Below, piece after piece: positions 12,734-28,065 of a DNA stretch of 62,873 bases (its first letter is position 1; every line of letters begins with the position of its first letter). The notes under the pieces are model-generated. The model was given only the letters and a program-made list of their open reading frames with translations. It did no database searches and was not told the origin of the DNA. Where the stretch lies: the IMG/VR virus record IMGVR_UViG_3300008886_000002, positions 1 through 62,873 of that record; one strand, written 5' to 3'. Position numbers and translations under genes: made by a program. The DNA comes from a virus.

Positions 12734-12743
12734 AGGACACTCC

Positions 12744-13538
12744 ATGCCAGCACTACCCACAAACTTCACCACCGGTGGAACCCTGTCCGCCACGCAGTAC
12801 AACGCCACCAACGCTGCAGTGAACGGACTCAACCAAGCGGGAACTTTCGCGTCGCTCCCCGCAGCGGGGTTCCCGGGAGCCCTGTACCAGGCCACCGACA
12901 ACGGCAACCTGTACCGCGACAACGGCACCGCCTGGAACATCATCAGCATTGCCGGAACCGGACTCTCCGGCGTCGCTCCAGCCTCCACTGGCTGGTCCAC
13001 CACAACCTTGGGTTCATCCACATTCACCGCAGACAAAGATGGCTACATCCTCAACGCGGTCGCTGTCGGCAGCAACTCCGAGACGTTGCGCATGCAATAC
13101 CGCACCCTCACGGCGACGTCCAACTACACCGCCACGTTCTACATGGACTGGCAACTCGCAGGAGCGGTGAACAATGCCATGGTCATCGCAGTCGGGGACG
13201 GAACCAAGTGGGTAGACTTTGGCCTGCAGCGAGACGGTGGTACGTCTCTCCCCGACATCCGCGTCTTTCAACACACCAATGCCACCACCTACTCATCAAC
13301 GCCGTTCGCATTTGGGACAGCCAAATCGGCGTTGTACACCACCGCCCGTTGGTGGCGAATCCGCGACGACGGCACCAACCACTACTTCGGTGTATCCCTT
13401 AATGGGATTGATTGGGTCGAGGTGTACTCGCAGTCCCGCACTGCGTGGTTGACCCCGTCAGTCATTGGCTGGGGCGCCAACGTCTACGGGTCGAACTACA
13501 CGGCGTTGGCCAGAATGCGTTCGCTGACGGGCGCGTAA
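12744..13538 (+). CDS. Minor tail protein (receptor-binding-type)
   Basis: 264-aa ORF with an aaagga SD. N-terminus PTNFTTGGTLSATQYNA...LYQATDNGNLYRDNGTAWN is typical of actinophage tail-fibre-like proteins. Confidence 0.7.
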   Translation: MPALPTNFTTGGTLSATQYNATNAAVNGLNQAGTFASLPAAGFPGALYQATDNGNLYRDNGTAWNIISIAGTGLSGVAPASTGWSTTTLGSSTFTADKDGYILNAVAVGSNSETLRMQYRTLTATSNYTATFYMDWQLAGAVNNAMVIAVGDGTKWVDFGLQRDGGTSLPDIRVFQHTNATTYSSTPFAFGTAKSALYTTARWWRIRDDGTNHYFGVSLNGIDWVEVYSQSRTAWLTPSVIGWGANVYGSNYTALARMRSLTGA

Positions 13539-14669
13539 CCCAGTGGCGATCATCCACCCAAACGTCGTCACTGTGAGTAAGGGATATATCAGTGCGGCCC
13601 ACGCTAACCCTCCGGGACGGCTGATCTGGTTGGCCACCGGCTGCAACTGATCCAACGCATTTGGCACCGCCACCACCATCACGATGAGCCACACCCAGAA
13701 CAACACCCGCGCGCCCTTCGCCTGGCACCAGGTGCCGTTCCGCAGCCACATCACCAACGGCACCAACCAAACCCAATGGTTGGTCCACGACACCGGCGGG
13801 ACCAGCAACCCAAATATCATGATCACCAACAACGCTCCCACCGCATCCTGTCGGAGCATCCACCACGCGCCAACCGCAACCAGAAACGTGGCTGCGATGG
13901 CAACTACGACGAGAGCACTCATCCCCGGGTCGTAACCCACCACGCGGGCGATCCCAGCTCGCCATGACTGGTTGACGGTGTAACCCATTGAGAACAACGA
14001 GTCCCCGCCGATCCAATCGGTGAAGTAGGCGACAACTCGATTGCCCACCAGTGGATACGCCGCTAGCAGGGTGGCAAGGAACGCGACAACCGAGAACGTC
14101 ATAGCTGCCCAGCGCCGTCCCCCGCCGAAATAGAAGGCTGCGATGGCAGGAGTCAGCTTTACTCCCGATGCGACCCCTACGAGTAGGCCGGATGCCCACC
14201 ATCGTGTGCTGTAGGCCGCATAGAGAACGACGAGCATCAAGAAGACGCCGACGTTTCCCGACTTGATGTTCCCGACTATGGGTTCAAGCCATATACCGCC
14301 TGCCGTCCACAGCATCGCGGCCCGTGGATCGTTCCTCTTCATGAGCCGCAGAGCGATCCGCATCGACACATAGAGGGCGGCGACCACCGACACCCTCCAC
14401 AGAAACGTGACCAGCCAAAACGGCAACCAATGCAGCGGATAGAAAAGCATCGCCGCAAACGGTGGATAAACGAAAGGCAACGCGGTCATCTGGTCGATCC
14501 AGCCTGGCGTGTACATAACGGACGGTGCTTTCAATGCTTCGCCGCCAAAAACGTATACGTGCAGGTCACCTGCGTAGGTAAACGAGCTTGTCGCCAGCGA
14601 CCCCGTCGCGCTGACCGCTAGTAGCCACGGCGCCCCCCGCCGCCAATGGTCGACATTCACACGCTTCAA
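13458..14669 (-). CDS. Polytopic membrane glycosyltransferase, GT87/DUF2029-like (GT-C fold)
   Basis: 403 aa with many hydrophobic spans. Loop YAGDLHVYVFGGEAL...FVYPPFAAMLFYP resembles the PimE/Rv2181-type catalytic loop. It is the only minus-strand gene in the tail block and has an SD (gaggggga) before TTG. Confidence 0.7.
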   Translation of the reverse strand: MKRVNVDHWRRGAPWLLAVSATGSLATSSFTYAGDLHVYVFGGEALKAPSVMYTPGWIDQMTALPFVYPPFAAMLFYPLHWLPFWLVTFLWRVSVVAALYVSMRIALRLMKRNDPRAAMLWTAGGIWLEPIVGNIKSGNVGVFLMLVVLYAAYSTRWWASGLLVGVASGVKLTPAIAAFYFGGGRRWAAMTFSVVAFLATLLAAYPLVGNRVVAYFTDWIGGDSLFSMGYTVNQSWRAGIARVVGYDPGMSALVVVAIAATFLVAVGAWWMLRQDAVGALLVIMIFGLLVPPVSWTNHWVWLVPLVMWLRNGTWCQAKGARVLFWVWLIVMVVAVPNALDQLQPVANQISRPGGLAWAALIYPLLTVTTFGWMIATGLRARQRTHSGQRRVVRPVDVGAPAND

Positions 14670-14782
14670 CGAACTTCCCCCTCAATCCCGACGCTAACTC
14701 CTCACAGCGTGTGTGGGAAGCCCCCCAAACGCACCCTGACCCACCCGGTGTCAGGGGCCATCACCCAAGTAAAGGAAACATC

Positions 14783-15133
14783 GTGGCTATTGCCGTGACC
14801 GCAACCCGCAACACCCTCGCCACCTCCTACGGAACCGCCCTCTCCTGGATCGGCATCGCGACCGGCGACCCCGGCACCTCCGCCACCCCCGCCAACGAAG
14901 CCACCGGTGGTTCCCCCGCCTACGCCCGGAAGCAGACCACCTGGGGTACCGCAGCGTCGGGCGCCATCACCGGCAGCTCCGTCACCGTAGATCTTGCAGC
15001 AGGCACGTACTCGTTTGCCATCTTGGCTTCTGCGGCGACCGGAAATACGATGGGGGATAAGGTCAGCATCACGTCAACAACCCTTGGAACGCAAGGGCAG
15101 CTGGTCGTTACCCCAAGTTATACTCAGTCCTAG
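14783..15133 (+). CDS. Small tail-associated protein (hypothetical)
   Basis: GTG start 7 nt after the aaaggaaa SD, internal to track ORF 14711..15133. Ala/Thr/Gly-rich, 116 aa. Confidence 0.65.
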   Translation: MAIAVTATRNTLATSYGTALSWIGIATGDPGTSATPANEATGGSPAYARKQTTWGTAASGAITGSSVTVDLAAGTYSFAILASAATGNTMGDKVSITSTTLGTQGQLVVTPSYTQS

Positions 15134-15155
15134 AGCTGGTAAAACGTTGTGTAGG

Positions 15156-15164
15156 TGATAGAAT
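15156..15164 (+). promoter_or_regulatory. Extended -10 promoter (TGaTAGAAT) giving a leaderless HNH transcript
   Basis: The TGnTAGAAT element ends 7 nt before ATG 15172, and there is no SD in between. Confidence 0.5.
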
Positions 15165-15171
15165 CATTCAC

Positions 15172-15819
15172 ATGCATGACGAACCTCAGAAAGAGACTTG
15201 GAAGCCAATTCCGGGCTTTGAAGGCAAGTACGAAGTCAGTGATCTTGGTCGCGTTAAGTCGTTGCCAAGGACCATCCAACGGGGCGGTCACAACTACAGA
15301 ATTCGCGGACAGATTCTGAAGCAAACTCCAGATAAGGCGGGACGCCTGCTTGTGGGCCTCTACCCGGGGTCAGTTAGGCGGGGAAAGCTGCATTTCGTGC
15401 ACCGATTGGTGCTGGAAGCTTTTGTTGGTCCTCGTCCTGAAGGCATGGTCTGCTGCCATCACAACGATGTCTCTACAGACAACCGCCTGTGCAACCTTCG
15501 TTGGGACACCATGTCTGCCAACAACTATGACAAGGTTCGCAACGGTGGCGACCACAACGCGAGCCGTACCCATTGCGATTCGGGCCATGAGTACACCCCC
15601 GACAACACTCAAGTGTTGCTCAAGGGCGGTCGCCAGTGCATTGAATGCCATCGGCGTTACGTCCGTGAATACATGCGTCGTAAACGAAGCGAGCCGAAGA
15701 ACGCCGGTATTTGCGGCCAGTGCGGCAAGCCGCGAGATTCCGCACAGTTCAAGTGCTGCAGTAGATGCCGCGAGTACGCACGTGCATACCGGGCTCGTCG
15801 TAACGGGCAGACCGCGTGA
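15172..15819 (+). CDS. HNH homing endonuclease (NUMOD4 + HNH_3 type)
   Basis: WKPIPGFEGKYEVSDLGRVKS (NUMOD4) and VHRLVLEAFVG...CCHHNDVSTDNRLCNLRWDT (HNH), with a Cys-rich tail. Confidence 0.9.
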   Translation: MHDEPQKETWKPIPGFEGKYEVSDLGRVKSLPRTIQRGGHNYRIRGQILKQTPDKAGRLLVGLYPGSVRRGKLHFVHRLVLEAFVGPRPEGMVCCHHNDVSTDNRLCNLRWDTMSANNYDKVRNGGDHNASRTHCDSGHEYTPDNTQVLLKGGRQCIECHRRYVREYMRRKRSEPKNAGICGQCGKPRDSAQFKCCSRCREYARAYRARRNGQTA

Positions 15820-16001
15820 GTCTCTACGAACGGGTGAGCATCAGCCCCGACGATCTCATTGCCGCGCTGCAGCAAGTGAATCAACGATGGCGGGATGCTC
15901 GGTTGCACAAGAACGACGTGACCAAGAACCTCACCATCCACGTCGGCGGCGAAATGGTTGGTGTCGTTGACTTACTGCGCGCCACTGTCGATGACTTCTA
16001 A
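15816..16001 (+). CDS. Hypothetical protein
   Basis: 61-aa ORF with GTGA overlap to the HNH stop. Confidence 0.6.
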   Translation: MSLYERVSISPDDLIAALQQVNQRWRDARLHKNDVTKNLTIHVGGEMVGVVDLLRATVDDF

Positions 16002-16023
16002 CTGACCCAACGAACCGCACTCG

Positions 16024-16050
16024 AAGGCCCTCACCACTGGTGGGGGCCTT
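16024..16050 (+). terminator. Stem-loop (copy B of the repeated terminator-SD module)
   Basis: 16021..16065 matches 7437..7481 at 43 of 45 nt. Same 12-bp stem, but a weaker T-tract (ccttctg). Confidence 0.6.
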
Positions 16051-16068
16051 CTGCATGGAAGGACGACG

Positions 16069-16230
16069 ATGGTCGACAGTCTTGCCGAGGAATTGGCGGC
16101 GATAGCTGACTTCGCGGAACGAGCAGATGTGGTGTCGGAAGTCCTGTTCAACTACTTACCCGACCTGGATTACGTGCTGAACTGCCAGATAGCGCGGGAC
16201 GTCGTGCTCAATCTAGAAGGCCGGTCGTGA
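16069..16230 (+). CDS. Hypothetical protein (53 aa, below the ORF-track cutoff)
   Basis: Read directly: ATG after the ggaaggacg SD, no in-frame stops, and its TGA overlaps the GTG of the next gene (GTGA). Confidence 0.6.
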   Translation: MVDSLAEELAAIADFAERADVVSEVLFNYLPDLDYVLNCQIARDVVLNLEGRS

Positions 16231-16538
16231 GTGGGGCGGGGCTTCTCGCCCTGACGGTGTGGCCTGCCTACATCGGTTTCGGCACACACCCCGACGAAGA
16301 CCTGCCCACCGAGAAGCGGTTCCAAATCCGTTGGGGCACCGAAGATGGTTTCACCGTCGGGCATGCGCACCCCGTCATCGACACCGGCGACTACCCCTGC
16401 CTGCTGTACTTCCATGCACCCACCGGGCCGCCGTCGTTCTCCGCCCAATTCCAGCACCCCGTGCACCTCACCGCAGGCCGTCAACACATCGGGCCCATCG
16501 TGTGCGTCGGCGACGAGATCACCGCGCAAGTGAACTGA
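16227..16538 (+). CDS. Hypothetical protein
   Basis: 103-aa ORF with GTGA coupling. Confidence 0.65.
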   Translation: MSGAGLLALTVWPAYIGFGTHPDEDLPTEKRFQIRWGTEDGFTVGHAHPVIDTGDYPCLLYFHAPTGPPSFSAQFQHPVHLTAGRQHIGPIVCVGDEITAQVN

Positions 16539-16551
16539 AAGGCGTTGACCT

Positions 16552-17238
16552 GTGGCCAACCTGGTGTATTTCACGGTGACTGGAACGTTCCTCGCCGCGG
16601 TACGGGACTCGGTGTACGACGTCGACAACGACCCCGAACTCACCCCCATGACCGGTTCCGTAGTCCTTACCCCCCTCATCGATTCCGGGGACTCCCTGCC
16701 CGCGCCGACCCTCACGCCGCCCGCCAACCTGTGGCTCGTCCCCATCAAAGCGCAAATCCGAGCCGGGAAGATCACCGCCAACGGCGCCACCGGAGTGAAG
16801 CTGGTCGCCAACACCGCGGTCCTCGGCCTCGCCGGGAACCTGTACTACCGCGTCGACTACCCCGAAGGGCTCACCGCAGGCGGGAAGACCTACCAACCCG
16901 ACTCGTTCACCTTCCAAGCGCCCCTCACCGCCACCACCGTCGACCTCGTCGAAGTAACCCCCCTTCCCGGACATCCCGCCTTCGCCGAAGTCCTCCCCGT
17001 CGTCACCGTCGCCGGGCAAAAAGGCAACGTGCTCCTCACCGTCGACGACCTCGGAGACGCTCAACCCACCGGCAAGGACCTCACCCGTTCTGAAACACCC
17101 GTCGACGCCCGCACCGCCATCCACGCCCTCGCCGGAACCATCGTCGACCCCACCGGAACCGTCATCACCAACAAGGCAGCCCGCATCGTCCTGGACTCCA
17201 ACGGCGAAATCGACGACATCATCATGGAAGGCATCTGA
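16552..17238 (+). CDS. Minor tail protein; intact paralogue of the IS-disrupted gene at 49571
   Basis: N-terminus LVYFTVTGTF and C-terminal FTFQAPLTATTVDLVEVTPLPG align with 49571..49876 plus 51227..51355. Confidence 0.7.
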   Translation: MANLVYFTVTGTFLAAVRDSVYDVDNDPELTPMTGSVVLTPLIDSGDSLPAPTLTPPANLWLVPIKAQIRAGKITANGATGVKLVANTAVLGLAGNLYYRVDYPEGLTAGGKTYQPDSFTFQAPLTATTVDLVEVTPLPGHPAFAEVLPVVTVAGQKGNVLLTVDDLGDAQPTGKDLTRSETPVDARTAIHALAGTIVDPTGTVITNKAARIVLDSNGEIDDIIMEGI

Positions 17239-18065
17239 TGGCACTGGCGAAGGACGCCACCCGATACGGGGGACGCGCACGCGCATTCGACAAAGGTCAA
17301 CCCACCGGGGAAATCCTCTACGCCTCCAACTTCGGTGACAACTACTTCGACGGTTGGCGCGCCTCCCACTTCACCGGCATGGCCGCCACCCCACCGCTGG
17401 GGTTGACGTCCTACCCCACGCATTCCGGGCGCCTCGCCCTCCAGTTGTCCACCGAGATGCGCACCTACGACGTCAACAACCAAGGCAAGTCTTGCTACAC
17501 CTTCCGCGGGCTGTCGCTGTATACCAGCCGCCGCTACCTGTCGTATTCGGCGTTCCTCGCGCTCGGCGTGGGTGGGTTTAACCAGACGTGGCAAGAGTTC
17601 GGCATGTACTTCGACATCCAGAAGCAAGACAACAGTTCCCGGTCCTTCCCCGCATTGACGGTCAAGAGCATGGGGTCGCCCACCTATTCGAAGGTGCAGA
17701 TCCGCAACGACGCGAAAACACCCATCGACATCCCCGGCACCACCCATCTGTGGACCGGTGACAACGAAAACAAGCAAGGCTTCGGCTATTTGCGGTTGAC
17801 GTGGGATCTGCAAGCCAACAGCGGGTTGGGTGGCTACAAGGAAGCTCAAGTGCAGAATCAGGTGTTCGACCTCACCGGACTGTCCGGGCAGTCCGCCGCC
17901 GAACCACCCCAAACTGACGCCCTCACCGGGCAGGGGAACATCGCGGAGTTCAACGGCGGCTTGAACATTGGTCTCTACATCAACCGGTCCTCTGATACCG
18001 GGCTGGCCGACCAGTACCCGGCAACGCTGGTCGCCGATTCGATCATCGTGTCCAACCACGACTAA
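17238..18065 (+). CDS. Minor tail protein (hypothetical)
   Basis: 275-aa ORF with TGATG coupling. Located in the tail block. Confidence 0.65.
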   Translation: MALAKDATRYGGRARAFDKGQPTGEILYASNFGDNYFDGWRASHFTGMAATPPLGLTSYPTHSGRLALQLSTEMRTYDVNNQGKSCYTFRGLSLYTSRRYLSYSAFLALGVGGFNQTWQEFGMYFDIQKQDNSSRSFPALTVKSMGSPTYSKVQIRNDAKTPIDIPGTTHLWTGDNENKQGFGYLRLTWDLQANSGLGGYKEAQVQNQVFDLTGLSGQSAAEPPQTDALTGQGNIAEFNGGLNIGLYINRSSDTGLADQYPATLVADSIIVSNHD

Positions 18066-18074
18066 TAGGGGCTT

Positions 18075-18599
18075 GTGATGACGTACTCGATTGCGATACC
18101 CCTGCTGACCGCGCAAACCTCAGACGGCACCGCCGGCATCAAATTCGACGATGGTGGCGGTTTCGGACTGAACTATCCCACCAACAAACCGGACTGGGCG
18201 TGGGCCGATGAAATCACCTTCGCCATCACCATCCTCGCCGTCTCGGGAGCTCCGACGACGTGGTCGGTGGGGGCAAAGCTTCAGTTCATGCAACCCCACA
18301 CCTACAATTTTCAGTTTCAGAAGCCCCGCCACTTCGACCTGCAACCGGAACAAGTAGACACCTGCGTGGTGGAGAAGTGCGGTTTCTACACCGGCCTCCA
18401 CACCGCCCCGTTGGATGGAGACTTCGGAATCATCGCCGACAACACCGACACCCCGCCGACGGTGACCACGCCGATTCAGGTGCAGCGCACGGTCCGCAAC
18501 TTCGGCCAGGCAGCCCGAGTGAAGCTGAATCTCACGCATACCGGCGGCACGGACCCCCGTGTCGGTATGTCCATCACCGCGATCCTGAAGGCGCACTAA
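18075..18599 (+). CDS. Hypothetical protein (tail block)
   Basis: 174-aa ORF 9 nt after the upstream stop. Confidence 0.65.
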   Translation: MMTYSIAIPLLTAQTSDGTAGIKFDDGGGFGLNYPTNKPDWAWADEITFAITILAVSGAPTTWSVGAKLQFMQPHTYNFQFQKPRHFDLQPEQVDTCVVEKCGFYTGLHTAPLDGDFGIIADNTDTPPTVTTPIQVQRTVRNFGQAARVKLNLTHTGGTDPRVGMSITAILKAH

Positions 18600-18600
18600 C

Positions 18601-19482
18601 ATGGCTAATTCGATGCGGGACAAGATGCTCGCCTTCCTCGGTCTGCAACCCACACTCGCGACGTTCCTTGCCCGCCCCCCGCTGGATGACTACTTCGTGA
18701 CCGGTGGCACCAACCGTTCCGCCCTGAACGACAATGTCCTCGCCGCCACGGGGTCTGGTGCGATCGACACACTAGCGTTGGGTAACGGGTCGGGGTCGGT
18801 GCATTCGTTCTACGTTCAGGTCAACGGATCCTCCGGTATCTCCGCCGGGCAGATCGTGTTCGAGGGGTCCAACGACAACACGACGTTCACCACACTCCCG
18901 TACGTGGATGGTGCGTCAGCGTCTGCGGCGTTCTTCACTGGCGCCGCCGTCACCATCGCCGCATCCACTAGCAGGTTCTTCCAAGGACCGTTGACGTACC
19001 GGTATTTCCGGGTTCGTATTTCGACCGCTTTCGCGGGGGGAACGGTGTCGGCGACGGCCCGCCTGTCCACGGCGCCGTACCCGAATGGGACGACGACCGT
19101 CGTTCAGGCCACGGCCCTCAACTTGCGGACCGCGGCCACCCCCACCCCGGCGGGGTCGGGTGGTAACTCGTTCTACACCTCAGCTCTCACCAACACTGCA
19201 TCTGCGGTCAAGGCTTCCGCTGGGCAGGTGTACGGGTGGGACTTCCACAACCCCAACTCGGCTGTCGCGTATGTGCAGTTCTTCAACACCGCTCAGGGTT
19301 CGGTGACGGTGGGGACGACGACACCGGTGATGTCGATTGGGTTGCCCGCGAACAGTAAGGGGCAGGCGCAGTGGCCGCACGGCTTGCAGTTCTCCACAGC
19401 TATCACGGTGGCCGCCGCAACTACACGCACGGGTGGGACGGCACCAACATCTTCGGTGGACGTGAACGTGGTGTACACGTGA
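18601..19482 (+). CDS. Minor tail protein (hypothetical, two similar halves)
   Basis: 293-aa ORF starting 1 nt after the upstream stop. Ser/Thr/Ala-rich. Confidence 0.65.
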   Translation: MANSMRDKMLAFLGLQPTLATFLARPPLDDYFVTGGTNRSALNDNVLAATGSGAIDTLALGNGSGSVHSFYVQVNGSSGISAGQIVFEGSNDNTTFTTLPYVDGASASAAFFTGAAVTIAASTSRFFQGPLTYRYFRVRISTAFAGGTVSATARLSTAPYPNGTTTVVQATALNLRTAATPTPAGSGGNSFYTSALTNTASAVKASAGQVYGWDFHNPNSAVAYVQFFNTAQGSVTVGTTTPVMSIGLPANSKGQAQWPHGLQFSTAITVAAATTRTGGTAPTSSVDVNVVYT

Positions 19483-19595
19483 TGCGCTACGTGTGCTGCG
19501 CTGTGTTTGGTGCGGTGGCTGGTGTTGCGGTGCTAGCCGTGGCGGCACCCCTACTAGTCACCTTCACTGACTGCTCCCGATTCGTGGAGTTCTGA
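19482..19595 (+). CDS. Small membrane protein (37 aa)
   Basis: TGATG coupling. One hydrophobic span, CCAVFGAVAGVAVLAVAAPLLV. Confidence 0.5.
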   Translation: MRYVCCAVFGAVAGVAVLAVAAPLLVTFTDCSRFVEF

Positions 19596-19687
19596 TGCGC
19601 CTCGGGAGGGTCGTCGGCCTGGCGTTGTTTGCGGGTGCGTTCACAGCGATGTGCTGGTTCGGCTCTGACACGTTCATCGACTTCTAG
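19595..19687 (+). CDS. Small membrane protein (30 aa)
   Basis: TGATG coupling. Sequence RVVGLALFAGAFTAMCWF, read directly from the nucleotides. Confidence 0.45.
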   Translation: MRLGRVVGLALFAGAFTAMCWFGSDTFIDF

Positions 19688-19735
19688 ACCTCTCTGCCCA
19701 CTTTTCACCCCCCGAATAGACCCGGAGGTTTCTTC

Positions 19736-20908
19736 GTGCTGTCCAACCACATCCGCCACCCCCACGCCGCGACGCAATCGTTGACGTTCCGTGAGGTGGC
19801 GACCGCGTACAACTACCCGCTGACGAAGGCCACTGGGAAGGGTTGCCGTGTCGCGATCGCTGAGCTGGGTGGCGGGTTCACCATCGCGCAGATCGACGCC
19901 GCCCTGGCCAAGCAGGGGATCAAGCGGGGCGGCTTCCTCACTTCGGTCAACGTCGGCAGCGGCAGGAACCATGAGGACGGCCTGAACGGTGCTGACGGGG
20001 AAGTGCAGTCCGACATCCTCGGTGTCCTTGAAGTAGCACCCGACGCTGACGTGGTCGTGGTGTTCGGCGGCAACACCGACGCCGACTTCTACCAAGTCCT
20101 CGACTACTGCTTCACCCACGCCGACGTCGTCACCCTGTCGTGGGGTGGTGCGGAACCCGAATGGGACACGGCGACGATGGACCGCTTCGCCACTCGCATC
20201 CAAACCGCGGCGACTGCTGGTGTGCCGCTGTTCGTCGCCTCCGGGGACTCCGGTTCCGGCGACGGGGAGCGGTCGGCGTCGGTCGACTTCCCCGCCAGCG
20301 CACCCGCCTCCATTGCATGCGGTGGAACCCGGCTCACCATTGGTCCCGGCGGCGCCCGGATCAACGAGGTCACCTGGGACGACGAGCCCACCAGCTCGGC
20401 GACCGGTGGGGGGGTGTCGAAGCACTTCCCGGGCCGCGACGTCCCCGACGTTGCCGGTAACGCCGACCCCCAGACCGGGTACCAGGTCACCATCGACGGC
20501 CAGGACGCCGTCATCGGCGGCACCTCATTGGTCGCACCCCTGTATGCGGGCCTGTATGCGCTGCTGTGGGAACTGCTCGGCGGCAAGGCATTCGACTTTC
20601 GTGCCGCGGTGATCGCCAATCCGTCGGTGTGCTTCGACGTCACCTCCGGCAACAACGGTGCATTCCGCGCAGGACCAGGCCGCGACGAAACCACCGGCTT
20701 CGGCGTTGTCGACGGCGCAAAGCTCCTGACCGTGTTGCAGGCGTCCACACCCACAACCCCCACCCCGCCGGCCGCAACACCATTCCCCACCGCAGCCATC
20801 CGCACCTGGCTCACCGGCAAGCACAACCACACCAAAGCCGAATCAGCAGCCGCCACAGCCATCACCGCCTACGCAACCAGCCTCGGTATCAACGTCGGCG
20901 CCACATGA
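19736..20908 (+). CDS. Sedolisin-type (S53) serine-carboxyl peptidase, catalytic domain only
   Basis: ggagg SD plus GTG start. Motifs: GEVQSDI (Glu/Asp spaced 4 residues apart), TLSWGG, ASGDSGS, GGTSLVAP. Confidence 0.8.
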   Translation: MLSNHIRHPHAATQSLTFREVATAYNYPLTKATGKGCRVAIAELGGGFTIAQIDAALAKQGIKRGGFLTSVNVGSGRNHEDGLNGADGEVQSDILGVLEVAPDADVVVVFGGNTDADFYQVLDYCFTHADVVTLSWGGAEPEWDTATMDRFATRIQTAATAGVPLFVASGDSGSGDGERSASVDFPASAPASIACGGTRLTIGPGGARINEVTWDDEPTSSATGGGVSKHFPGRDVPDVAGNADPQTGYQVTIDGQDAVIGGTSLVAPLYAGLYALLWELLGGKAFDFRAAVIANPSVCFDVTSGNNGAFRAGPGRDETTGFGVVDGAKLLTVLQASTPTTPTPPAATPFPTAAIRTWLTGKHNHTKAESAAATAITAYATSLGINVGAT

Positions 20909-21042
20909 TCCACGTCCTCGTATACGACGGCATCCCGATAGCGGCGTCCGAACGGATGGAACGCCTCTCCATGCAAATGAGTGCTTACACCCCGAATCAG
21001 CAAGCGTTGATGGCCATCTATGCAGTGGAGGTACTCGACTGA
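20905..21042 (+). CDS. Hypothetical protein (45 aa)
   Basis: ATGA overlap upstream and TGATG downstream. Confidence 0.5.
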   Translation: MIHVLVYDGIPIAASERMERLSMQMSAYTPNQQALMAIYAVEVLD

Positions 21043-21374
21043 TGCCAGGACTCAAAGACTTCGCCGCTGACGTCTTCATCAAAGTGATTTCAGACCCGAC
21101 CGTCCAAGAGACGGTGAAGAAGCTGCTCGGCAGCATCATCGCCGAACAAATCTTGCCGTTGGTTCCGGTTGCCGTTGGCGCCGCCACCAAGGCCGCCGTG
21201 GATGAGGTCGTCAAGAAGTTCCCCGGTGCGCAGGACGTCATCGACGGCGTGGTGGACATCGCCCACACGACCGACGCTGCCCGGGATGAGTTGAACAAAC
21301 TCATCCCGGACATCGACTTTGGCATCCCCGCCCTAGACAACTTGCTGGATTTTTGGCGGCCCAAGAATGGGTGA
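21042..21374 (+). CDS. Hypothetical protein (lysis cassette)
   Basis: 110-aa ORF coupled at both ends. Confidence 0.65.
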   Translation: MPGLKDFAADVFIKVISDPTVQETVKKLLGSIIAEQILPLVPVAVGAATKAAVDEVVKKFPGAQDVIDGVVDIAHTTDAARDELNKLIPDIDFGIPALDNLLDFWRPKNG

Positions 21375-22887
21375 CCGCAATGTCTATGGGAACGACTTCA
21401 GCGAGAACGGCTGGAGAATGGTCGACCAGGGTTCCTGTGTGTGGGTCAAGGTGCCGGGCACGTCAGTGTCCTTGCAGATCCGCGAAGGCCAACCAGCAGA
21501 AATCCTCGGCGCGTGGGCCGCGGACTTCAACGCATATGTAGAACCGTTGCGCGACCCCGATTCGGCGTGCTGGACAGCCACCAACTCCGTCGGCACGTCG
21601 AACCACCTCAGCGGAACCGCCTGCGACTTGAATTGGAACAGCCACCCCTTCCAGGTCCTCAATGCCGGGTTCAGCGCAACGCAGATTGCGACCATCCGGG
21701 AGATGCTGGCGTTCTACGAGAAGACCGTCTGGTGGGGCAACGACTGGGACAGCCCCAAAGATGCGATGCATTTCCAGATGGGCTACGACACATACGGTTC
21801 GCAGAACGTCGACCGCGTGCAAGATTTCATCAACCGCAAGATCCGCGCTGACGGGTTCTCAACGTTCCGCCGCGGTGGGGCTGTGACACCGCCCGCACAA
21901 CCGGCGCAGCCGGTCGCCTTGTCCCGTGCTGACGGGTATGCGGTTCGGATCATCGCTGAGGGTCGGCGCCGGAACATCACGCCGCGTGGCATTCAGATCG
22001 CCCTCGCCACCGCCCTCGTCGAATCCAACCTGAAGGTGTACGCCAACCAGCGCGTACCCGCATCAATGGCATTGCCCCACGACGACGTTGGCAGCGACGC
22101 TTACTCAGTCGGCATCTTCCAGCAACAAGTACGCGACACCGGCAACGGGTGGTGGTGGGGTGACGCCGCGACGTGCATGGGCGTCGAATCCTCAGCCGGA
22201 CTGTTCTACGACCGGCTGTCACGCCTGGACTACAACGGCCGCAACTCGCCCGGCTCCTACGCGCAAGACGTGCAGGACTCGGACTACCCCGATCGGTACG
22301 ACGGCCGATTCAACGACGCCGTTGCCATCTACAACCGCCTAGCCAATGCACCCACGCAAGGAGAAGACATGGCCGCTGTGCCCCAGGACCAATGGGACCG
22401 CGTCTACCAGGAGTTGACCAAGCAGTTCCCCAGCCGCAGCCCGCTGCGGCACCTGGGGGAGGGCTTGGTAGACACGATGGCGGGATTCGTGCTGAACACC
22501 GACGGCAGTCAGCACGTCGAAATCTGCCGCCTCCTCGCTGGTTACGGCCACCCCCCAACGTTGGCGTTGCTGCGCGAAGTCGCCAACGCCGACCCCGTCA
22601 AGTACCCGGACCGGCAAGACGACGCCAAACTGGCGCAGGCCATCCTCGCTGAATCCACCTCCACCCCAGCGGCTGTCGCTCCCGCCGAGGCTGTCGAACC
22701 TGCCCCGGTCTACAACATCACCAACGTGTCGACCCCAGCAGCTGGAAGCACCGGTCAAATCATCGGCCAGGCATATGACGCTCTCGAGGCGCTGCAACTC
22801 AGCGGCGCGCTCACCGACTCCGAGAAAGCCCCCCTGGCAGCCCTGATCGGGGTTCTGCAGACCAAGACTCAAGGAGCAGCATCGTGA
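21367..22887 (+). CDS. lysA: Endolysin (lysin A): M15 peptidase domain, lysozyme/transglycosylase-like domain and C-terminal region
   Basis: SNHLSGTACDLNW...DAMHFQMG (VanY/M15 type) and ALVESNLKVYAN...DAYSVGIFQQQ. Confidence 0.85.
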   Translation: MGDRNVYGNDFSENGWRMVDQGSCVWVKVPGTSVSLQIREGQPAEILGAWAADFNAYVEPLRDPDSACWTATNSVGTSNHLSGTACDLNWNSHPFQVLNAGFSATQIATIREMLAFYEKTVWWGNDWDSPKDAMHFQMGYDTYGSQNVDRVQDFINRKIRADGFSTFRRGGAVTPPAQPAQPVALSRADGYAVRIIAEGRRRNITPRGIQIALATALVESNLKVYANQRVPASMALPHDDVGSDAYSVGIFQQQVRDTGNGWWWGDAATCMGVESSAGLFYDRLSRLDYNGRNSPGSYAQDVQDSDYPDRYDGRFNDAVAIYNRLANAPTQGEDMAAVPQDQWDRVYQELTKQFPSRSPLRHLGEGLVDTMAGFVLNTDGSQHVEICRLLAGYGHPPTLALLREVANADPVKYPDRQDDAKLAQAILAESTSTPAAVAPAEAVEPAPVYNITNVSTPAAGSTGQIIGQAYDALEALQLSGALTDSEKAPLAALIGVLQTKTQGAAS

Positions 22888-23222
22888 CTACACCTCAGTT
22901 CGACCTCGCCGACGTCGTGCCGTTGAAGTACAAGCCCCTCGTCGGGCTCGTTGGTTCGGCGTTGACGTTCATCATTCCGACGGTGCTGGATTACTCGACG
23001 TCGCTGCCGAACCCGTGGCCGTGGGTCATCGCCGCCGTGGTCGCCCTGCTAACTGCTCTGGGTATCTATCGGGCGCCGTACAAGCCTGAGGGAACGGTAC
23101 TGGTCCCTGAGGCGACTGTGGCACCACCACCTGTCGCTACGAACAACATCAACGTGGGTACGCACTCGCCGGGCTCAATCGGCGGCCTTCAGCGCTCCGC
23201 CTACCAGAATCCGTGGCAGTGA
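22884..23222 (+). CDS. Holin-like membrane protein (2 TM)
   Basis: GTGA overlap with lysA. Hydrophobic spans LVGLVGSALTFIIPTVL and WVIAAVVALLTALGIY. Confidence 0.65.
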   Translation: MTTPQFDLADVVPLKYKPLVGLVGSALTFIIPTVLDYSTSLPNPWPWVIAAVVALLTALGIYRAPYKPEGTVLVPEATVAPPPVATNNINVGTHSPGSIGGLQRSAYQNPWQ

Positions 23223-23323
23223 TGAAGCTCAAGCATCACCACCAACTTCGCGGTCATCGCTACCGGATTAAGAGGCGGATGATGCGCCGCGGGATTGTCG
23301 ACCTTCGGGGTAACGCACTGTGA
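23222..23323 (+). CDS. Small highly basic protein (33 aa)
   Basis: TGATG coupling upstream and GTGA coupling to lysB. Read directly; Lys/Arg/His-rich. Confidence 0.4.
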   Translation: MKLKHHHQLRGHRYRIKRRMMRRGIVDLRGNAL

Positions 23324-24303
23324 CCCTTCAGCTCGGCTCGCATGGGCCGTTGGTCTCAAGGTGGACCGATGTCATGTTGCGTCGGTTCCGGTCGTATGCG
23401 CTCGGGGTTGACGGGCAACCGCTCCGCAACGACGGCTACTACGGCTACGACGAACAGAAGGTACAACGCGAGTACGAGCGCCGCACCAACCAGCCCCAGG
23501 ACGGCGTCGTGTCCGACAACGACCTCGGGGCACTCGGTCTCGCGCAACCAGTCATCTTCTCCGTCGAGGGCCACATGTCGAACATGTGGTTCGGGCCGGC
23601 TGCCGATACCGCGCATCAGGTGCAGCGTGAGGGGTTGGCGTACTGGCAGCCCTACGGGTACGTCAACGACGCTATTCCGTTCGCCAACAAGCAGGCCACC
23701 GCTGGGCTGGTGCAACTCGTCGGGTCCACGACACTTCCCGACGGCACACCGTTCCCGGCTGGCACACCGTGGGGGATTGAGTCATTCAGTCAAGGCGCGA
23801 TGATCGCCACGATGCTGATGCGCGACCACGTTCTCCCCGAAAACGGTGATCTGCACTGGCGGCTCAAGGACTTCAAACGCGGACTGGCGCACGGCAACCC
23901 GAACCGCGGCAAGGACGCTTGCTGCTCATGGGCCACCGACCCACCCGCAGCTGGGACTGGCGGCATCATGCTCGACGAACGGTTCGACACCCGCGGCACT
24001 GCCATTGAGGGGCTGTGGCAGGAGCACCCGCGCAAGGGTGACATGTTCGCCGACGAGGGTGACGATGACGTGGCGAAGGACAAGGCGGCGGTCGCGAAGA
24101 TCGTCACTGAGAACTCATGGGCTGGTGGTGACGTGGCGTTGCTGGCGCGGGTAACGAACCTGCTGACCAACCCGGTGATGACGATCCCTGCGCTACTGGC
24201 CACGATCGGCGCGATCAAGTTCGCCGTCGCCAACCCGAACCCGCACTACTCCACCGTCAGCGAGCCGGGTGACGTTGCTTGGATGAGGGGTGTCGCAGCG
24301 TGA
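23320..24303 (+). CDS. lysB: Lysin B (mycolylarabinogalactan esterase) with N-terminal peptidoglycan-binding-like domain
   Basis: LQLGSHGPLVSRW...GVVSDNDLGALGL (PG-binding-like) and FSQGA (GxSxG-type serine esterase motif). Located in the lysis cassette. Confidence 0.8.
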   Translation: MTLQLGSHGPLVSRWTDVMLRRFRSYALGVDGQPLRNDGYYGYDEQKVQREYERRTNQPQDGVVSDNDLGALGLAQPVIFSVEGHMSNMWFGPAADTAHQVQREGLAYWQPYGYVNDAIPFANKQATAGLVQLVGSTTLPDGTPFPAGTPWGIESFSQGAMIATMLMRDHVLPENGDLHWRLKDFKRGLAHGNPNRGKDACCSWATDPPAAGTGGIMLDERFDTRGTAIEGLWQEHPRKGDMFADEGDDDVAKDKAAVAKIVTENSWAGGDVALLARVTNLLTNPVMTIPALLATIGAIKFAVANPNPHYSTVSEPGDVAWMRGVAA

Positions 24304-24698
24304 CGATCCGCGAGTCGGGTATCGCCACGATCATCGGGTGGGTGTTCGCGGTGTGGGCGTTGGGGTTCGGGACGAATACCGTTCTGATCGCCGACCGTGT
24401 TACGTCCCCGCAGTGGCGATCCCTAATGACGGTTCCGGGTGGTAAGTGGTTTTGGTTTGGCCTGTTCGCCGCGGCCGGCATCACACTCATCTGCGGTATC
24501 CTCACCACCCGATACCGTTTGCGTGCCGCAGGTTTCACACTGACCGCCGCAGGGTGCTTCGCCATCGCCGCGTTCTACGTCGTCGCCCCCATTTTCCACC
24601 TCGGCCCCATCACCCTCGGTTACTGGCCGTGGTTCCTCGGCATCGGAATCGGGACGCTCGGCGCCATCGTCAACCTCAAGGCCATCGCGTGGTTCTAA
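24300..24698 (+). CDS. Membrane protein (about 4 TM)
   Basis: GTGA overlap with the lysB stop. Hydrophobic throughout. Confidence 0.65.
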   Translation: MTIRESGIATIIGWVFAVWALGFGTNTVLIADRVTSPQWRSLMTVPGGKWFWFGLFAAAGITLICGILTTRYRLRAAGFTLTAAGCFAIAAFYVVAPIFHLGPITLGYWPWFLGIGIGTLGAIVNLKAIAWF

Positions 24699-24709
24699 CG
24701 GTCCGACGG

Positions 24710-25159
24710 TTGCGACGGCGGATACGAGCCCTCGGCGCCGCGCTCGGCGCCATCCTCGACGCGCAGGGTGTCGGCATCTTCCAAGTCATCGTCTACCTGC
24801 ACATCGGACCCCTAGCCGGCCTGTACGGGCTGCTGGTGGCTGGCGGCACCCCACAGGCCGTTGAGGATGCGATGGGCTCGGTTTGGAACGGCGTATGGCT
24901 GTGGTTGTGTCTCGGAATCTGCATGTGCTTGGCGGGGAAGCTGGTCAAGTGGGACGCCGGCATGTGGTTACAACTGTCCGGCGACATCGCCGCCGCCTTC
25001 GCGCTCCTGGTGTACATCGTGGCGTCGATCGATTCCGCATGGTGGGGGAAGGCACTTTACGCGGTGTTCGCGTGCGCCGCCCTCTTCGAATGCGTGTTGC
25101 TGCTCATCGTGCGGGACATTCGCCGAATCGTCATTGACCAGAAGCGGAGACACCGATGA
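24710..25159 (+). CDS. Membrane protein (about 4 TM)
   Basis: TTG start 12 nt after the upstream stop. The upstream part of track ORF 24446 is Arg-rich out-of-frame read-through of the previous gene. Confidence 0.55.
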   Translation: MRRRIRALGAALGAILDAQGVGIFQVIVYLHIGPLAGLYGLLVAGGTPQAVEDAMGSVWNGVWLWLCLGICMCLAGKLVKWDAGMWLQLSGDIAAAFALLVYIVASIDSAWWGKALYAVFACAALFECVLLLIVRDIRRIVIDQKRRHR

Positions 25160-25548
25160 CGCTGGCTGCGTGGATCACCGTGGCGGGCATGGTGTTGTTC
25201 GGCGGTACGGGTGGCGGCGGGGTCGTCTACTGGCTGCTGAACCGCAAGAGTGAGGCTGTCAAGTCCAAGGCCGTTGAGGTTGCGAGCGAAGCGGTCAAGG
25301 CTGAACGTGAGTCCACCCTCGCTGATGCTGCGAAGAAGTGGCAAGAGGTGTTGGACGTTTCGCAGACCAAGGCGTACGCGACGGTGAAAGCTCAGTGCGA
25401 TGAGTGCACCGAACGGTTGGGTGGGATGCATGATGTGGCGGGCAATTTGATTGACGCGTTGGAGGCGTTGTTGGCGGAGGACACTCCGCAGAACCGTGCC
25501 GACGCCCGCGCGTCTGTGAGATTGGCGCGCAGGGCGATGACGTTGTAG
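25156..25548 (+). CDS. N-terminally anchored coiled-coil protein (last gene of the rightward lysis operon)
   Basis: ATGA overlap. One N-terminal TM (AAWITVAGMVLFGG) followed by helical sequence. Confidence 0.65.
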   Translation: MTLAAWITVAGMVLFGGTGGGGVVYWLLNRKSEAVKSKAVEVASEAVKAERESTLADAAKKWQEVLDVSQTKAYATVKAQCDECTERLGGMHDVAGNLIDALEALLAEDTPQNRADARASVRLARRAMTL

Positions 25549-25578
25549 CCCTAGGCTGGACTGTGCCGTTCGCGGACT

Positions 25579-25620
25579 GCCGCCCCTCGCTCACCTCTCC
25601 GGGCGAGGGGCGGCCTTCTT
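25579..25620 (+). terminator. Rho-independent terminator ending the late/lysis operon
   Basis: Perfect 12-bp stem gccgcccctcgc/gcgaggggcggc with a 12-nt loop, then cttcttcgtgtt. Confidence 0.75.
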
Positions 25621-25624
25621 CGTG

Positions 25625-25783
25625 TTAGGGCTTAGATGCCAACGTCCTCACCGCCTCCGACAACTGCACCAACCCCTCAGCCAACTTCCGTGTCACCTCA
25701 TTCTCCGTAGACCTACCCACCTCACGGAAAGTGTTAGCAGCACCAGTAGCCCACACAGCAGCATCGTTACGGGATGTAGTCAT
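25625..25783 (-). CDS. Hypothetical protein (52 aa)
   Basis: Read directly on the minus strand (MTTSRNDAAVW...RTLASKP). No clear SD. Confidence 0.4.
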   Translation of the reverse strand: MTTSRNDAAVWATGAANTFREVGRSTENEVTRKLAEGLVQLSEAVRTLASKP

Positions 25784-25821
25784 AGGTGGGGACGGTAGTA
25801 GCAGGTGCCGACAAAACTGAA

Positions 25822-26268
25822 CTAGTCAGGCCACGCGGCTTCCCAAGTTCGGCTGCGCGGACGGTAGTTGCCAACCCGATAAAGCAAATGCTGGTTGCGG
25901 GCATTGACATGAAACATCGTTCCCGTGAAACACACGGCCATCGGATCGGGTGTCGCGTCCGCAACAGACATGCATCCAGGACAGCCGGGGTCGGCGTGCA
26001 CCTCGTATTCGGGGTCAGTCAGGTCAACCCATGCGCAAACGTTGTAGTTCCTTGAGTCGTAGTGCAGGGCGCGAAGAAGTTCGTCACCGATAAGCAGGTA
26101 CGGGCTTGGTTCGCCACTAACTGCGATGTACTCATCGCATAGCCCTTCGCGGTGTCGGGTCACCCATACATCGCCAAGGATGTACTTATCCGGCGGATTG
26201 TCAGGGCCGTAGCCAAGGTCGCTGGGCAGCCGCCAACGAGGCCGAAGATCAAGCGGCATGGCGGTCAT
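25822..26268 (-). CDS. Hypothetical protein (148 aa)
   Basis: Internal ATG with ATGA overlap to the upstream stop and a ggag SD. Leftward operon. Confidence 0.65.
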   Translation of the reverse strand: MTAMPLDLRPRWRLPSDLGYGPDNPPDKYILGDVWVTRHREGLCDEYIAVSGEPSPYLLIGDELLRALHYDSRNYNVCAWVDLTDPEYEVHADPGCPGCMSVADATPDPMAVCFTGTMFHVNARNQHLLYRVGNYRPRSRTWEAAWPD

Positions 26269-27784: not shown

Positions 27785-27949
27785 TGGTTCATCTTCTCCT
27801 CGGCTACCGACGCCGACTCCATGGTTGGCCCGTCGTCGTGGCTGTTTGACACTGTCAATGCTGCCTGACGTTTTCCCAGGTCGCATCGTGTCATTTCATG
27901 TCGTCAAAACCCTCCGAATGCGGTGTAATTGCAGGTCGCATTCATTTTC

Positions 27950-27979
27950 GGCCGGGTTCGATTCCCGGCAGCTCCACCA
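27950..27979 (+). other. attP core: 3' end of a tmRNA (or tRNA-Ala)-like gene
   Basis: ggccGGGTTCGATTCCCGGCAGCTCCACCA reads as T-arm plus 3' acceptor strand with U70, A73 and CCA. No matching 5' acceptor strand lies upstream, so it is a gene fragment and not a tRNA. Confidence 0.75.
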
Positions 27980-27992
27980 ATAGTAGCAGGTC

Positions 27993-28022
27993 AAGCCCCC
28001 AAACATGGGGGCTTTTCCTTTT
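27993..28022 (+). terminator. Rho-independent terminator following the tmRNA-like fragment
   Basis: aagccccc aaacat gggggctt followed by ttcctttt. It would terminate the reconstituted host gene after integration. Confidence 0.75.
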
Positions 28023-28065
28023 GTCAAACGCTTGTCAAAGCGGGTTTTGGGGTAGGGTCATTTTT

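Follow-up and report, generated by a model that had tools for sequence, protein, structure and literature searches.

The DNA analysed here, hereafter the window, is the whole of IMG/VR virus record IMGVR_UViG_3300008886_000002 (positions 1 to 62,873), the complete, rotated genome of a temperate siphovirus. Between its tail genes and LysA, it encodes a serine-carboxyl peptidase of the S53 (sedolisin/kumamolisin-type) family that lacks the prodomain usual in such enzymes and carries a small helical module at its C terminus. Its close relatives form a clade, carried by Mycobacterium prophages and viral metagenome contigs, in which the gene repeatedly lies beside endolysins of unrelated architectures. 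S53 enzymes in the lysis cassettes of temperate actinophages are unreported in the literature that we searched (no relevant paper found on S53 enzymes, sedolisins, or kumamolisins in connection with phages, mycobacteriophages, or endolysins) and absent from the deposited phage genomes that we searched (no detectable relative in 50,697 genomes; tblastn, E <= 1e-5). As judged from sequence and gene context, the chances are about even that the protein is an accessory, envelope-directed protease of the lysis stage rather than a peptidoglycan-cleaving module of LysA.

An S53 peptidase without a prodomain

The gene and the parts of its product are as follows (aa, amino acids; nt, nucleotides).

19723 to 19727, plus strand: GGAGG ribosome-binding site, 8 nt 5' of the GTG start
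19736 to 20908, plus strand: S53 peptidase gene (GTG start, 390 aa, without prodomain or signal peptide)
19748 to 19771, plus strand: N-terminal extension, residues 5 to 12 (HIRHPHAA), corresponding to the clade motif I-R-x-P-R/K/H that precedes the mature-type domain
19775 to 20746, plus strand: catalytic domain, residues 14 to 337, as aligned to kumamolisin
19862 to 19864, 20000 to 20002, and 20012 to 20014, plus strand: checked codons of the catalytic-set residues E43, E89, and D93
20141 to 20143, 20246 to 20248, and 20525 to 20527, plus strand: checked codons of the catalytic-set residues W136, D171, and S264
Within the catalytic domain, plus strand: D301, G313, G315, and D317, equivalents of Ca2+-site residues as aligned to kumamolisin
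20747 to 20782, plus strand: Pro/Thr-rich linker, residues 338 to 349, TPTTPTPPAATP
20783 to 20905, plus strand: C-terminal helical-hairpin module of about 40 aa, FPTAAIRTWLTGKHNHTKAESAAATAITAYATSLGINVGAT

A first-pass annotation of the bare sequence had read this gene as an S53 peptidase from four motifs, all of which are present: GEVQSDI (E89/D93), TLSWGG (W136), ASGDSGS (D171), and GGTSLVAP (S264). Searches of PDB sequences with phmmer recovered kumamolisin as the best match (1gt9; E = 3.6e-56), with residues 14 to 334 aligned to residues 4 to 355 of the mature enzyme, and more weakly sedolisin (E = 4.6e-17) and human TPP1 (E = 8e-7). An AlphaFold2 model computed with 37 homologues as input has a mean predicted local distance difference test score (pLDDT) of 85.2 and a predicted template modelling score (pTM) of 0.82. 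In Foldseek comparisons, this model matches kumamolisin with a template modelling (TM) score of 0.84 (root mean square deviation, 2.0 to 2.5 A; E about 1e-30; 39% identity), and clearly less well sedolisin (TM, 0.76) and the S8 subtilisins (TM, about 0.7). Residue by residue, E32, E78, D82, W129, D164, and S278 of kumamolisin correspond to E43, E89, D93, W136, D171, and S264 of the phage protein, such that the catalytic residues, whose alignment the annotation had made a condition of its claim, coincide in the sequence comparison. Likewise, the kumamolisin Ca2+ site (D316, I317 O, G334 O, G336 O, and D338) aligns with D301, V302, G313, G315, and D317, and a Ca2+-binding site is predicted from these aligned ligand positions.

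The profile search that the annotation had proposed was less specific, in that the sole Pfam match is to the superfamily model Peptidase_S8 (PF00082; E = 1e-9); the S53 family was not named, and the Pro-kumamolisin prodomain was not matched. Because Pfam gives only Peptidase_S8, we base the S53 assignment on the PDB sequence and fold matches. The PHROG match is phrog_3677 ("protease"). The features of the peptidase unit, namely, the fold, the Ser-Glu-Asp triad, the Asp oxyanion residue, and the Glu/Trp network (Glu32/Trp129 in kumamolisin), place the predicted protein in the S53 family alongside kumamolisin and kumamolisin-As (MEROPS S53; PDB 1GT9, 1SIO, and the pro-form 1T1E), with which it shares these features, the Ca2+ site, and about 39% identity over the catalytic domain. 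In the 37 homologues (48 to 72% identity), the six catalytic-set residues as well as G313 and G315 are invariant, and D301 and D317 are nearly so. Since the active site is preserved to this degree among diverged proteins, its conservation argues for a catalytically competent enzyme under purifying selection for catalysis.

S53 precursors typically possess an N-terminal prodomain of about 150 to 200 aa, which acts as a folding chaperone and inhibitor and lies outside the definition of the peptidase unit; the characterised sedolisins, such as kumamolisin and TPP1, are made as proenzymes whose prodomain assists folding. That the large propeptide is missing here, as the annotation had noted, is borne out in several ways. 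The alignment begins at the mature N terminus, with residue 8 of the phage protein paired with residue 186 of pro-kumamolisin (1t1e, 552 aa), so that a prodomain of about 185 aa is absent. An in-frame stop lies 16 codons 5' of the GTG (the stop-to-stop frame starts at 19688), and this stop, together with the GGAGG before the GTG, excludes a longer open reading frame (ORF) and hence a prodomain in cis. A hidden Markov model (HMM) built from 73 prodomains of cellular homologues and run with all filters off gave no match when the whole window and closely related phage loci were searched in all six frames. The same HMM did pick up prodomains in cis in several distant S53 genes on viral contigs, so the test is able to detect them, and its failure to match anywhere in the complete phage genome rules out a prodomain supplied in trans. 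Across the family, the room for additional N-terminal residues is at most 46 in all viral relatives of at least 48% identity, against a median of 166 in 80 cellular loci. Nor was a signal peptide or membrane helix found in the protein, the lone hydrophobic stretch of its first 60 residues being the core strand beta-1. Thus, the predicted protein is a mature-type domain alone, i.e., an architectural variant of S53 and not a standard pro-sedolisin; relative to kumamolisin, it lacks the prodomain and signal peptide and adds the Pro/Thr linker and helical hairpin. More distant S53 genes on viral contigs in IMG/VR (32 to 41% identity, 340 to 370 aa) are in many cases prodomain-less too and mostly do not lie beside lysins (e.g., loci L111, L119, L121, L125, L126, L131, L139, L159, and L163). 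Prodomain loss therefore seems to be general among virus-borne sedolisins and not confined to the actinophage clade.

In place of the prodomain, the clade has a short N-terminal consensus, IRxPR, in which P9 is nearly invariant in the alignment of the 37 homologues; it is modelled with low confidence (residues 1 to 9, pLDDT < 50). The intracellular subtilisins of Bacillus (ISPs; family S8) offer a parallel within the subtilisin-fold superfamily, for they too lack a classical prodomain and a signal peptide and bear a short, conserved, proline-containing N-terminal extension. ISPs differ in having an Asp-His-Ser triad and in acting in the cytoplasm at neutral pH. By analogy with them, the I-R-x-P-R extension may have an inhibitory role.

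These observations also bear on the suggestion that the protein is a non-functional or non-catalytic remnant, which without its chaperone reaches no native state and is either decaying or retained only as a binding scaffold. The reliance of characterised sedolisins on the prodomain for folding, illustrated by the pro-kumamolisin structure 1t1e, and the failure to find such a domain in cis or in trans speak for it; yet we regard it as very improbable in view of the invariant catalytic set and the invariant or nearly invariant Ca2+ site, the confident kumamolisin-like model, and the more than 100 clusters (at 90% identity) that share the same architecture of about 400 aa. Moreover, prodomain-less intracellular subtilisins show that the superfamily can fold without a classical prodomain.

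Linkage of the S53 gene to lysins

In the window, the S53 gene follows the tail block and heads a rightward lysis block in the order S53 gene, 44-aa ORF, 110-aa gene, LysA, two-helix holin-like protein, LysB, three membrane or anchored proteins, and a terminator.

51 to 3734: tape measure gene, in the tail block
Up to at least 17238: minor tail genes, then unassigned ORFs up to 19482
19482 to 19595, plus strand: 37-aa ORF, MRYVCCAVFGAVAGVAVLAVAAPLLVTFTDCSRFVEF, with one hydrophobic helix; coding status uncertain
19595 to 19687, plus strand: 30-aa ORF, MRLGRVVGLALFAGAFTAMCWFGSDTFIDF, starting in overlap with the stop of the 37-aa ORF and likewise containing a single hydrophobic helix; coding status uncertain
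20908 to 21042, plus strand: doubtful 44-aa ORF, not conserved in related loci (no such gene in the corresponding gap of L002 and L004)
21042 to 21374, plus strand: 110-aa protein of unknown function (phrog_6229), homologous to a 109-aa gene product between the S53 gene and LysA in L002
21367 to 22887, plus strand: LysA, with N-terminal Peptidase_M15_4 (PF13539; E = 1e-9), a central transglycosylase-like region, and a C-terminal region
22884 to 23222, plus strand: 112-aa protein, holin-like in topology (two hydrophobic helices) and position; without a match to any family
23320 to 24303, plus strand: LysB of the mycolylarabinogalactan esterase family (phrog_102, "endolysin"; E = 4e-58)
24279 to 25548, plus strand: last three proteins of the lysis block, all membrane proteins or anchored at the N terminus: a 139-aa multi-transmembrane protein (phrog_11815), a roughly 155-aa membrane protein (phrog_5552), and a 130-aa protein (phrog_21046)
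25579 to 25614, plus strand: strong intrinsic-terminator-like hairpin (14-bp stem, 12 G-C pairs) that ends the rightward tail-lysis block

LysA matches the endolysin PHROGs phrog_317, 1512, and 700, and the 112-aa holin-like protein has a 47% identical homologue at the same position in L002. By megablast, the region gave short matches in LysA and LysB only, the LysB gene matching "lysin B" of Mycobacterium phage Xula. Together, LysB and these few nucleotide matches to Mycobacterium phage lysins indicate a host with mycolic acids. The annotation had placed the S53 gene three genes upstream of an M15/transglycosylase LysA, which is right if the doubtful 44-aa ORF is counted; its framing of the gene as part of a split lysin A fits poorly, as LysA is complete with an M15 peptidase and a glycosidase-type domain. 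No sigma-70-like promoter was found in 18500 to 26000, and the weak terminator-like signals at 19608 to 19624 are at background level only.

The protein collection that we searched holds thousands of relatives of the S53 protein. Nearly all members of the best 120 clusters are 350 to 430 aa long, with 47 to 69% identity, and many of them lie on contigs of 40 to 75 kb. The few relatives in NCBI genomes, named "S53 family peptidase," come from M. colombiense, M. intracellulare, Mycolicibacterium sphagni, and Mycolicibacter heraklionensis. In scans of IMG/VR, patterns derived from the single S53 protein gave nothing and the family alignment recovered relatives; a scan of genome contigs was saturated with cellular kumamolisins of Acidobacteria and similar groups, with no Mycobacterium prophage among the matches listed, and these cellular loci were used only as a prodomain-bearing outgroup. 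In a neighbour-joining tree of the catalytic domain, which carries no bootstrap values and is to be read with caution, the prodomain-less actinophage proteins form one clade, and the cellular kumamolisins with a prodomain fall outside it. In BFVD, genuine sedolisin-type matches are limited to large giant-virus proteins, the S53-like "subtilase family" proteins of Homavirus and Barrevirus, which match the fold (TMq, 0.79; 35 to 37% identity) but are multidomain proteins of 741 to 972 aa from eukaryotic giant viruses and bear no relation to phage lysis.

We assembled 21 distinct loci of the clade, comprising the window, contigs obtained by exact protein look-up, IMG/VR contigs, and one metagenome-assembled genome of Jatrophihabitans. 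An examination of homologues for co-occurrence with lysA, which the annotation had advised, shows an endolysin within about 3.3 kb of the S53 gene at 13 of them and directly downstream at 11 (0 to 500 nt away, separated by no more than a small ORF or an HNH endonuclease gene):

Window: M15_4 plus transglycosylase lysin, downstream
L002 and L087: LysA homologues, downstream
L004: M15_4 lysin, downstream
L037: M15_4 lysin, downstream
L086: transglycosylase plus Amidase_2 lysin, downstream
L090: Amidase_2 lysin, downstream after a 13-nt gap
L095: Amidase_2 fused to a C-terminal r1t-type holin domain (11113 to 12222), downstream after a 3-nt gap
L100: NlpC/P60 plus GH25 lysin, downstream after a 4-nt gap
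L091: GH25 lysin, downstream
L170: Amidase_2 lysin, abutting downstream, then a holin
L096: GH25 lysin, 0.9 kb upstream
L097: Rv2525c-like lysin, 3.2 kb upstream

Random placement of the gene would put a lysin this near at about 14% of loci, and the resulting binomial p is about 4e-7, a value that is inflated by the shared ancestry of the loci and overstates their independence. The partner lysins represent at least five unrelated architectures, and the lysis-linked members sit on both basal and derived branches of the clade in the neighbour-joining tree. For these two reasons, we conclude from the compared loci that the association of the S53 gene with a lysin has, as far as the tree can be trusted, survived repeated replacement of the lysin itself.

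The genes intervening between the S53 gene and the lysin vary, with an HNH endonuclease in L004 and L087 and nothing in L090, L095, L100, and L170; this rules out a conserved small partner (a chaperone, an inhibitor, or an Ms6 Gp1-like protein) encoded between the two. The phrog_6229 gene of the window has homologues in 66 Mycobacterium phage records (e.g., Phlyer gp76 and Akoma gp76), which lie at about 60 kb; their remoteness from the lysis genes rules out a partner specific to lysis. In the position of the 37- and 30-aa ORFs of the window, L002 has three small called genes (30, 51, and 41 aa); the two single-helix ORFs of the window may be small membrane peptides of the lysis block (holin- or antiholin-like) or may be non-coding. 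Two prophage loci show further enzymes in the neighbourhood. L004, a prophage of M. colombiense, encodes a 498-aa protein with a beta-lactamase/transpeptidase-like domain in its tail block (5447 to 6943) and a GDSL/SGNH lipase directly upstream of the S53 gene (9145 to 9921), giving four or more envelope-active enzymes in a row, counting S53, LysA, and a probable LysB. On L100, a prophage contig of Mycolicibacter heraklionensis, the NlpC/P60 plus GH25 endolysin (11156 to 12424) has a signal-peptide-like start, MPRPLLVLLTAAWLAIAPAVMASPA, which suggests that it is secreted or signal-anchored, the adjoining S53 protein being devoid of such a signal.

With the gene so placed, the S53 protein might be a true endolysin module that cuts stem peptides or cross-links of peptidoglycan, that is, a LysA peptidase encoded separately in the manner of the split C39 or M23 genes ("lysin A, protease C39 domain") of other actinophages, which are likewise lysis-cassette peptidases beside glycosidase or amidase domains. 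Its position directly upstream of LysA is the place held by split LysA peptidase genes in Gordonia phages, and the co-occurrence with lysins described above also speaks for this reading. We consider this improbable, and give it low weight, because the LysA of the window is complete with its own M15_4 peptidase and glycosidase-type domain, unlike in the split systems, and because we know of no characterised S53 enzyme that cleaves D-amino-acid or isopeptide bonds, the family having an extended cleft for L-peptides. Partner lysins elsewhere are complete too (e.g., NlpC/P60 plus GH25 in L100), and some clade members lie far from any lysin. The S53 domain itself falls outside the known peptidoglycan-hydrolysing families, matching only S8/S53 and phrog_3677, whereas the peptidase domains of LysA belong to families with documented or structurally inferred specificity for peptidoglycan peptides and form part of the LysA modular set. 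Mycobacteriophage LysAs do recruit unusual peptidase domains, but their domain catalogue, which lists M23 and N1 to N5 (C39/papain-like, RipA-like included), contains no serine peptidase (Payne and Hatfull 2012, PMC3314691). Between the two functions that the annotation had put forward, a new peptidoglycan-cleaving lysin module is thus disfavoured, and a protease of envelope proteins that aids lysis is better supported, as judged from context only.

The hairpin module and a proposed envelope protease

Most clade members carry, after a Pro/Thr-rich linker that is far longer in many homologues than in the window protein, a module of about 40 aa with the consensus FPxAxVxxWLxHKHNxTxxEAxAAxAIxAWxxxxG. 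AlphaFold2 models it as two helices (residues 352 to 360 and 367 to 382; pLDDT, 77 to 88). No similarity was found to Pfam (E up to 10), to PDB sequences, or to the N-terminal peptidoglycan-binding region of LysB. A word-index search with the module alignment gave nothing, and an exhaustive HMMER search succeeded; run against 1.84 billion representative proteins, the module profile recovered fragments of S53 proteins and, in addition, the papain-like cysteine peptidases P0127, P0128 (Peptidase_C1, phrog_16701), and P0124, in which the module sits behind long Pro-rich linkers. With the S53-derived profile, the module is detected in 78 of the 120 top S53 homologues and in at least 30 of 120 homologues of P0128. 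Two metagenomic C1 proteins, P0136 and P0155, have an r1t-type holin domain at the N terminus in addition to the peptidase, a Pro-rich linker, and a variant of the module, an architecture that, by prediction, places peptidase and module at the membrane or wall; P0160 and P0197 are further enzyme-holin fusions among the metagenomic Peptidase_C1 proteins.

Cultured actinophages encode relatives of the P0128 catalytic domain, which are annotated "cysteine protease" and form a separate gene of the lysis cassette. In Gordonia phage Lilbeanie, the cassette runs from a lysin A C39 domain, a lysin A glycosidase domain, and a hypothetical protein to the cysteine protease (gp40), followed by a holin, two membrane proteins, and lysin B; Gordonia phage Aleemily (gp29) has the same arrangement, and in Arthrobacter phage Mufasa8 (gp26), the gene follows lysin A and a membrane protein. 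As with S53, these are separate protease genes within or heading the lysis cassette, additional to a complete set of lysin A functions, and the metagenomic C1 peptidases bear the same hairpin module behind a Pro-rich linker. In fold and class, the two are unrelated (Cys/His papain-like versus Ser/Glu/Asp subtilisin-like), and a holin-type membrane anchor occurs on some C1 members and was not seen on S53 members. Because only context and the C-terminal module are common to both, the S53 protein is best described by this comparison as a putative non-orthologous analogue, not a member, of the group of stand-alone cysteine proteases in Gordonia and Arthrobacter lysis cassettes. We found no paper characterising either protease class in phage lysis. 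A survey of Gordonia lysis cassettes does not discuss the accessory cysteine protease, and the BetterKatz genome announcement recognises two endolysin genes, one of them for a cysteine-protease-like protein (PMC4982276).

On this basis, we propose the following course of events for the S53 protein. Its gene would be transcribed late, together with the tail and lysis genes, as their common strand, their spacing, and the lack of a strong terminator until 25579 suggest. Having neither signal peptide nor membrane anchor in its sequence, the protein would build up in the cytoplasm, where it would fold without an intramolecular chaperone and remain harmless; latency could stem from the acid requirement of sedolisins or from masking of the cleft by the N-terminal I-R-x-P-R peptide. 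Once the holin-like proteins permeabilise the membrane, it would get to the envelope with LysA and LysB. There, the C-terminal hairpin on its flexible linker may dock the enzyme to an envelope component, a step suggested by the occurrence of the same module on papain-like phage peptidases, some of them membrane-anchored via a holin domain. Ser264/Glu89/Asp93, with Asp171 as the oxyanion residue, would then cut a proteinaceous (L-peptide) substrate of the envelope or associated with the wall, and this cleavage could aid disintegration of the mycobacterial envelope or the release and dispersal of progeny.

Several points weigh against a role in lysis. Linkage to a lysin, though present at the loci listed above, is not universal in the clade, and at least 4 of the 21 loci are clearly elsewhere than in a lysis cassette, with replication or nucleotide-metabolism genes as neighbours in L094, L171, and L173. 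The other settings are as follows:

L094: Prim-Pol upstream of the S53 gene, Ku and DnaN downstream
L171: DNA polymerase III alpha upstream of the S53 gene, Prim-Pol downstream
L173: S53 gene after ribonucleotide reductase
L088: S53 gene preceding terminase
L092, L098, and L172: ambiguous setting, no adjacent lysin
L001: S53 gene, then two multi-helix membrane proteins, no recognisable lysin

The C1 genes with the module show an equally wide scatter of positions:

L176: at the end of the tail block
L175, 7001 to 7858: directly upstream of the major capsid gene, the usual place of a prohead protease or scaffold
L174: 5.5 kb past the lysin
L166: after Prim-Pol

Among the more distant prodomain-less viral S53 loci, only 3 to 4 of 25 have endolysin PHROGs nearby, which rules out a lysis linkage of viral S53 enzymes in general; it is the actinophage clade that shows the tight linkage. 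The pH range of characterised sedolisins, about 3 to 5, does not obviously match what the enzyme would meet at a mycobacterial cell undergoing lysis. As the end of the tail block always adjoins the lysis cassette in siphoviruses, a tail role and a lysis role cannot be told apart by position alone, and we infer the timing, localisation, and substrate of the enzyme alike.

This ambiguity of position is the starting point for regarding the protein instead as a virion (tail-tip) enzyme that, at infection, degrades surface proteins or capsule for receptor access. The S53 gene directly follows the tail block (genes up to 19482) in the window and likewise in L002, L004, and L170, a module-bearing C1 peptidase ends the tail block in L176, and a Pro-rich linker with a small terminal module is common in tail proteins. 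Still, this carries a low probability, given that in L096 the gene lies downstream of the lysin and not beside tail genes, that several clade members reside in replication modules, and that, in cultured phages, the analogous cysteine proteases are flanked by lysin A on one side and the holin or lysin B on the other. Some of the C1 analogues, moreover, carry a fused holin membrane domain, which cannot be reconciled with a place in the virion, and no similarity of the S53 protein to tail PHROGs was detected.

The most serious rival to an envelope protease of the lysis stage, although we think it unlikely, is a mobile, "moron-like" protease independent of lysis. Such an enzyme would act on proteins of the host or of competing phages (in takeover, anti-defence, exclusion, or as a prophage-expressed trait), and its gene would have landed at a permissive tail/lysis junction. 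It owes this standing to the replication-module contexts (after Prim-Pol, DNA polymerase III, or ribonucleotide reductase in L094, L171, and L173), to which the position before terminase in L088 and the equal scatter of the module-bearing C1 peptidases can be added, and to HNH neighbours. HNH homing endonucleases lie directly downstream of the S53 gene in L004 (11253 to 11537) and L087 (about 11180 to 11520) and two genes upstream of it in L173 (626 to 1216); they are consistent with mobility and could explain the varied genome positions of the S53 gene. The window itself has HNH genes at 15172 to 15819, inside the tail block, and at 27898 to 28758, beside the integrase. A protein without a signal peptide would, besides, be at least initially cytoplasmic. 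Set against this is the frequency of directly adjacent lysins, which is far above chance, persists through replacement of the lysin type, and extends to basal members of the clade. In the window, the gene shares strand and tight spacing with the late genes. Further, the Ca2+ site, the Pro/Thr linker, and the terminal binding-type module are typical of extracytoplasmic enzymes, and the acid optimum of sedolisins speaks against a role in the cytoplasm.

Beyond the envelope-directed role of the S53 protein, we tentatively raise a broader idea, to which we assign a lesser likelihood, that actinophages deploy an unrecognised class of envelope proteases in which S53 or C1 domains are swapped onto a common hairpin module or holin anchor, constituting a fourth lysis function beside holin, LysA, and LysB. 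Enzymes of such a class would cleave a protein on which the cohesion of the mycobacterial envelope depends or would destroy receptors on debris, and the S53 version would be the first natural chaperone-free sedolisin lineage, kept latent by cytoplasmic pH or by its N-terminal peptide.

The wider genome and implications for mycobacterial lysis

Elsewhere in the window, the genome has the following features.

28725 to 29876: tyrosine integrase
53 to 59 kb: terminase, portal, head-maturation protease, scaffold, and major head protein
56209 to 56988: canonical head-maturation protease (phrog_193; E = 4e-41), with scaffold and major head protein next

The presence of this canonical enzyme rules out the S53 protein as the head-maturation protease. 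Residues 230 to 326 of the major head protein (57687 to 58916, plus strand) match the "major tail protein" phrog_10909 (E = 1e-9), and the C-terminal third of the protein may be a shared immunoglobulin-like decoration domain. Despite their plus-strand orientation, the distal tail and lysis genes (12000 to 24000) show a GC skew of -0.05 to -0.16, the skew being positive over 1 to 12 kb; in the negative-skew region, a 403-aa minus-strand ORF (13458 to 14669) without a PHROG match is a candidate gene only.

As sedolisins, the phage enzymes depart from their best-known relative in setting as well as in architecture, being encoded by temperate phages beside lysins, whereas kumamolisin is a secreted nutritional protease of an acidophilic/thermophilic bacterium. 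A natural sedolisin clade without a prodomain in cis or in trans challenges the need for an intramolecular chaperone, and it supplies sequences for the study of prodomain-independent folding and latency. The hairpin common to two unrelated peptidase families defines a new and tractable candidate targeting module. That the clade is absent from 50,697 deposited phage genomes shows what has been overlooked by isolating phages on one laboratory host (M. smegmatis). Current accounts of lysis in mycolic-acid bacteria invoke holins, Lysin A, which attacks peptidoglycan, and Lysin B, which attacks the mycolyl-arabinogalactan ester. If an envelope-directed role is correct, a conserved protease encoded with the lysis genes in many Mycobacterium prophages, those of the M. 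avium complex included, would imply that the envelope contains a protein needing cleavage, and it would provide a new enzyme class for lysin-based antimycobacterials.

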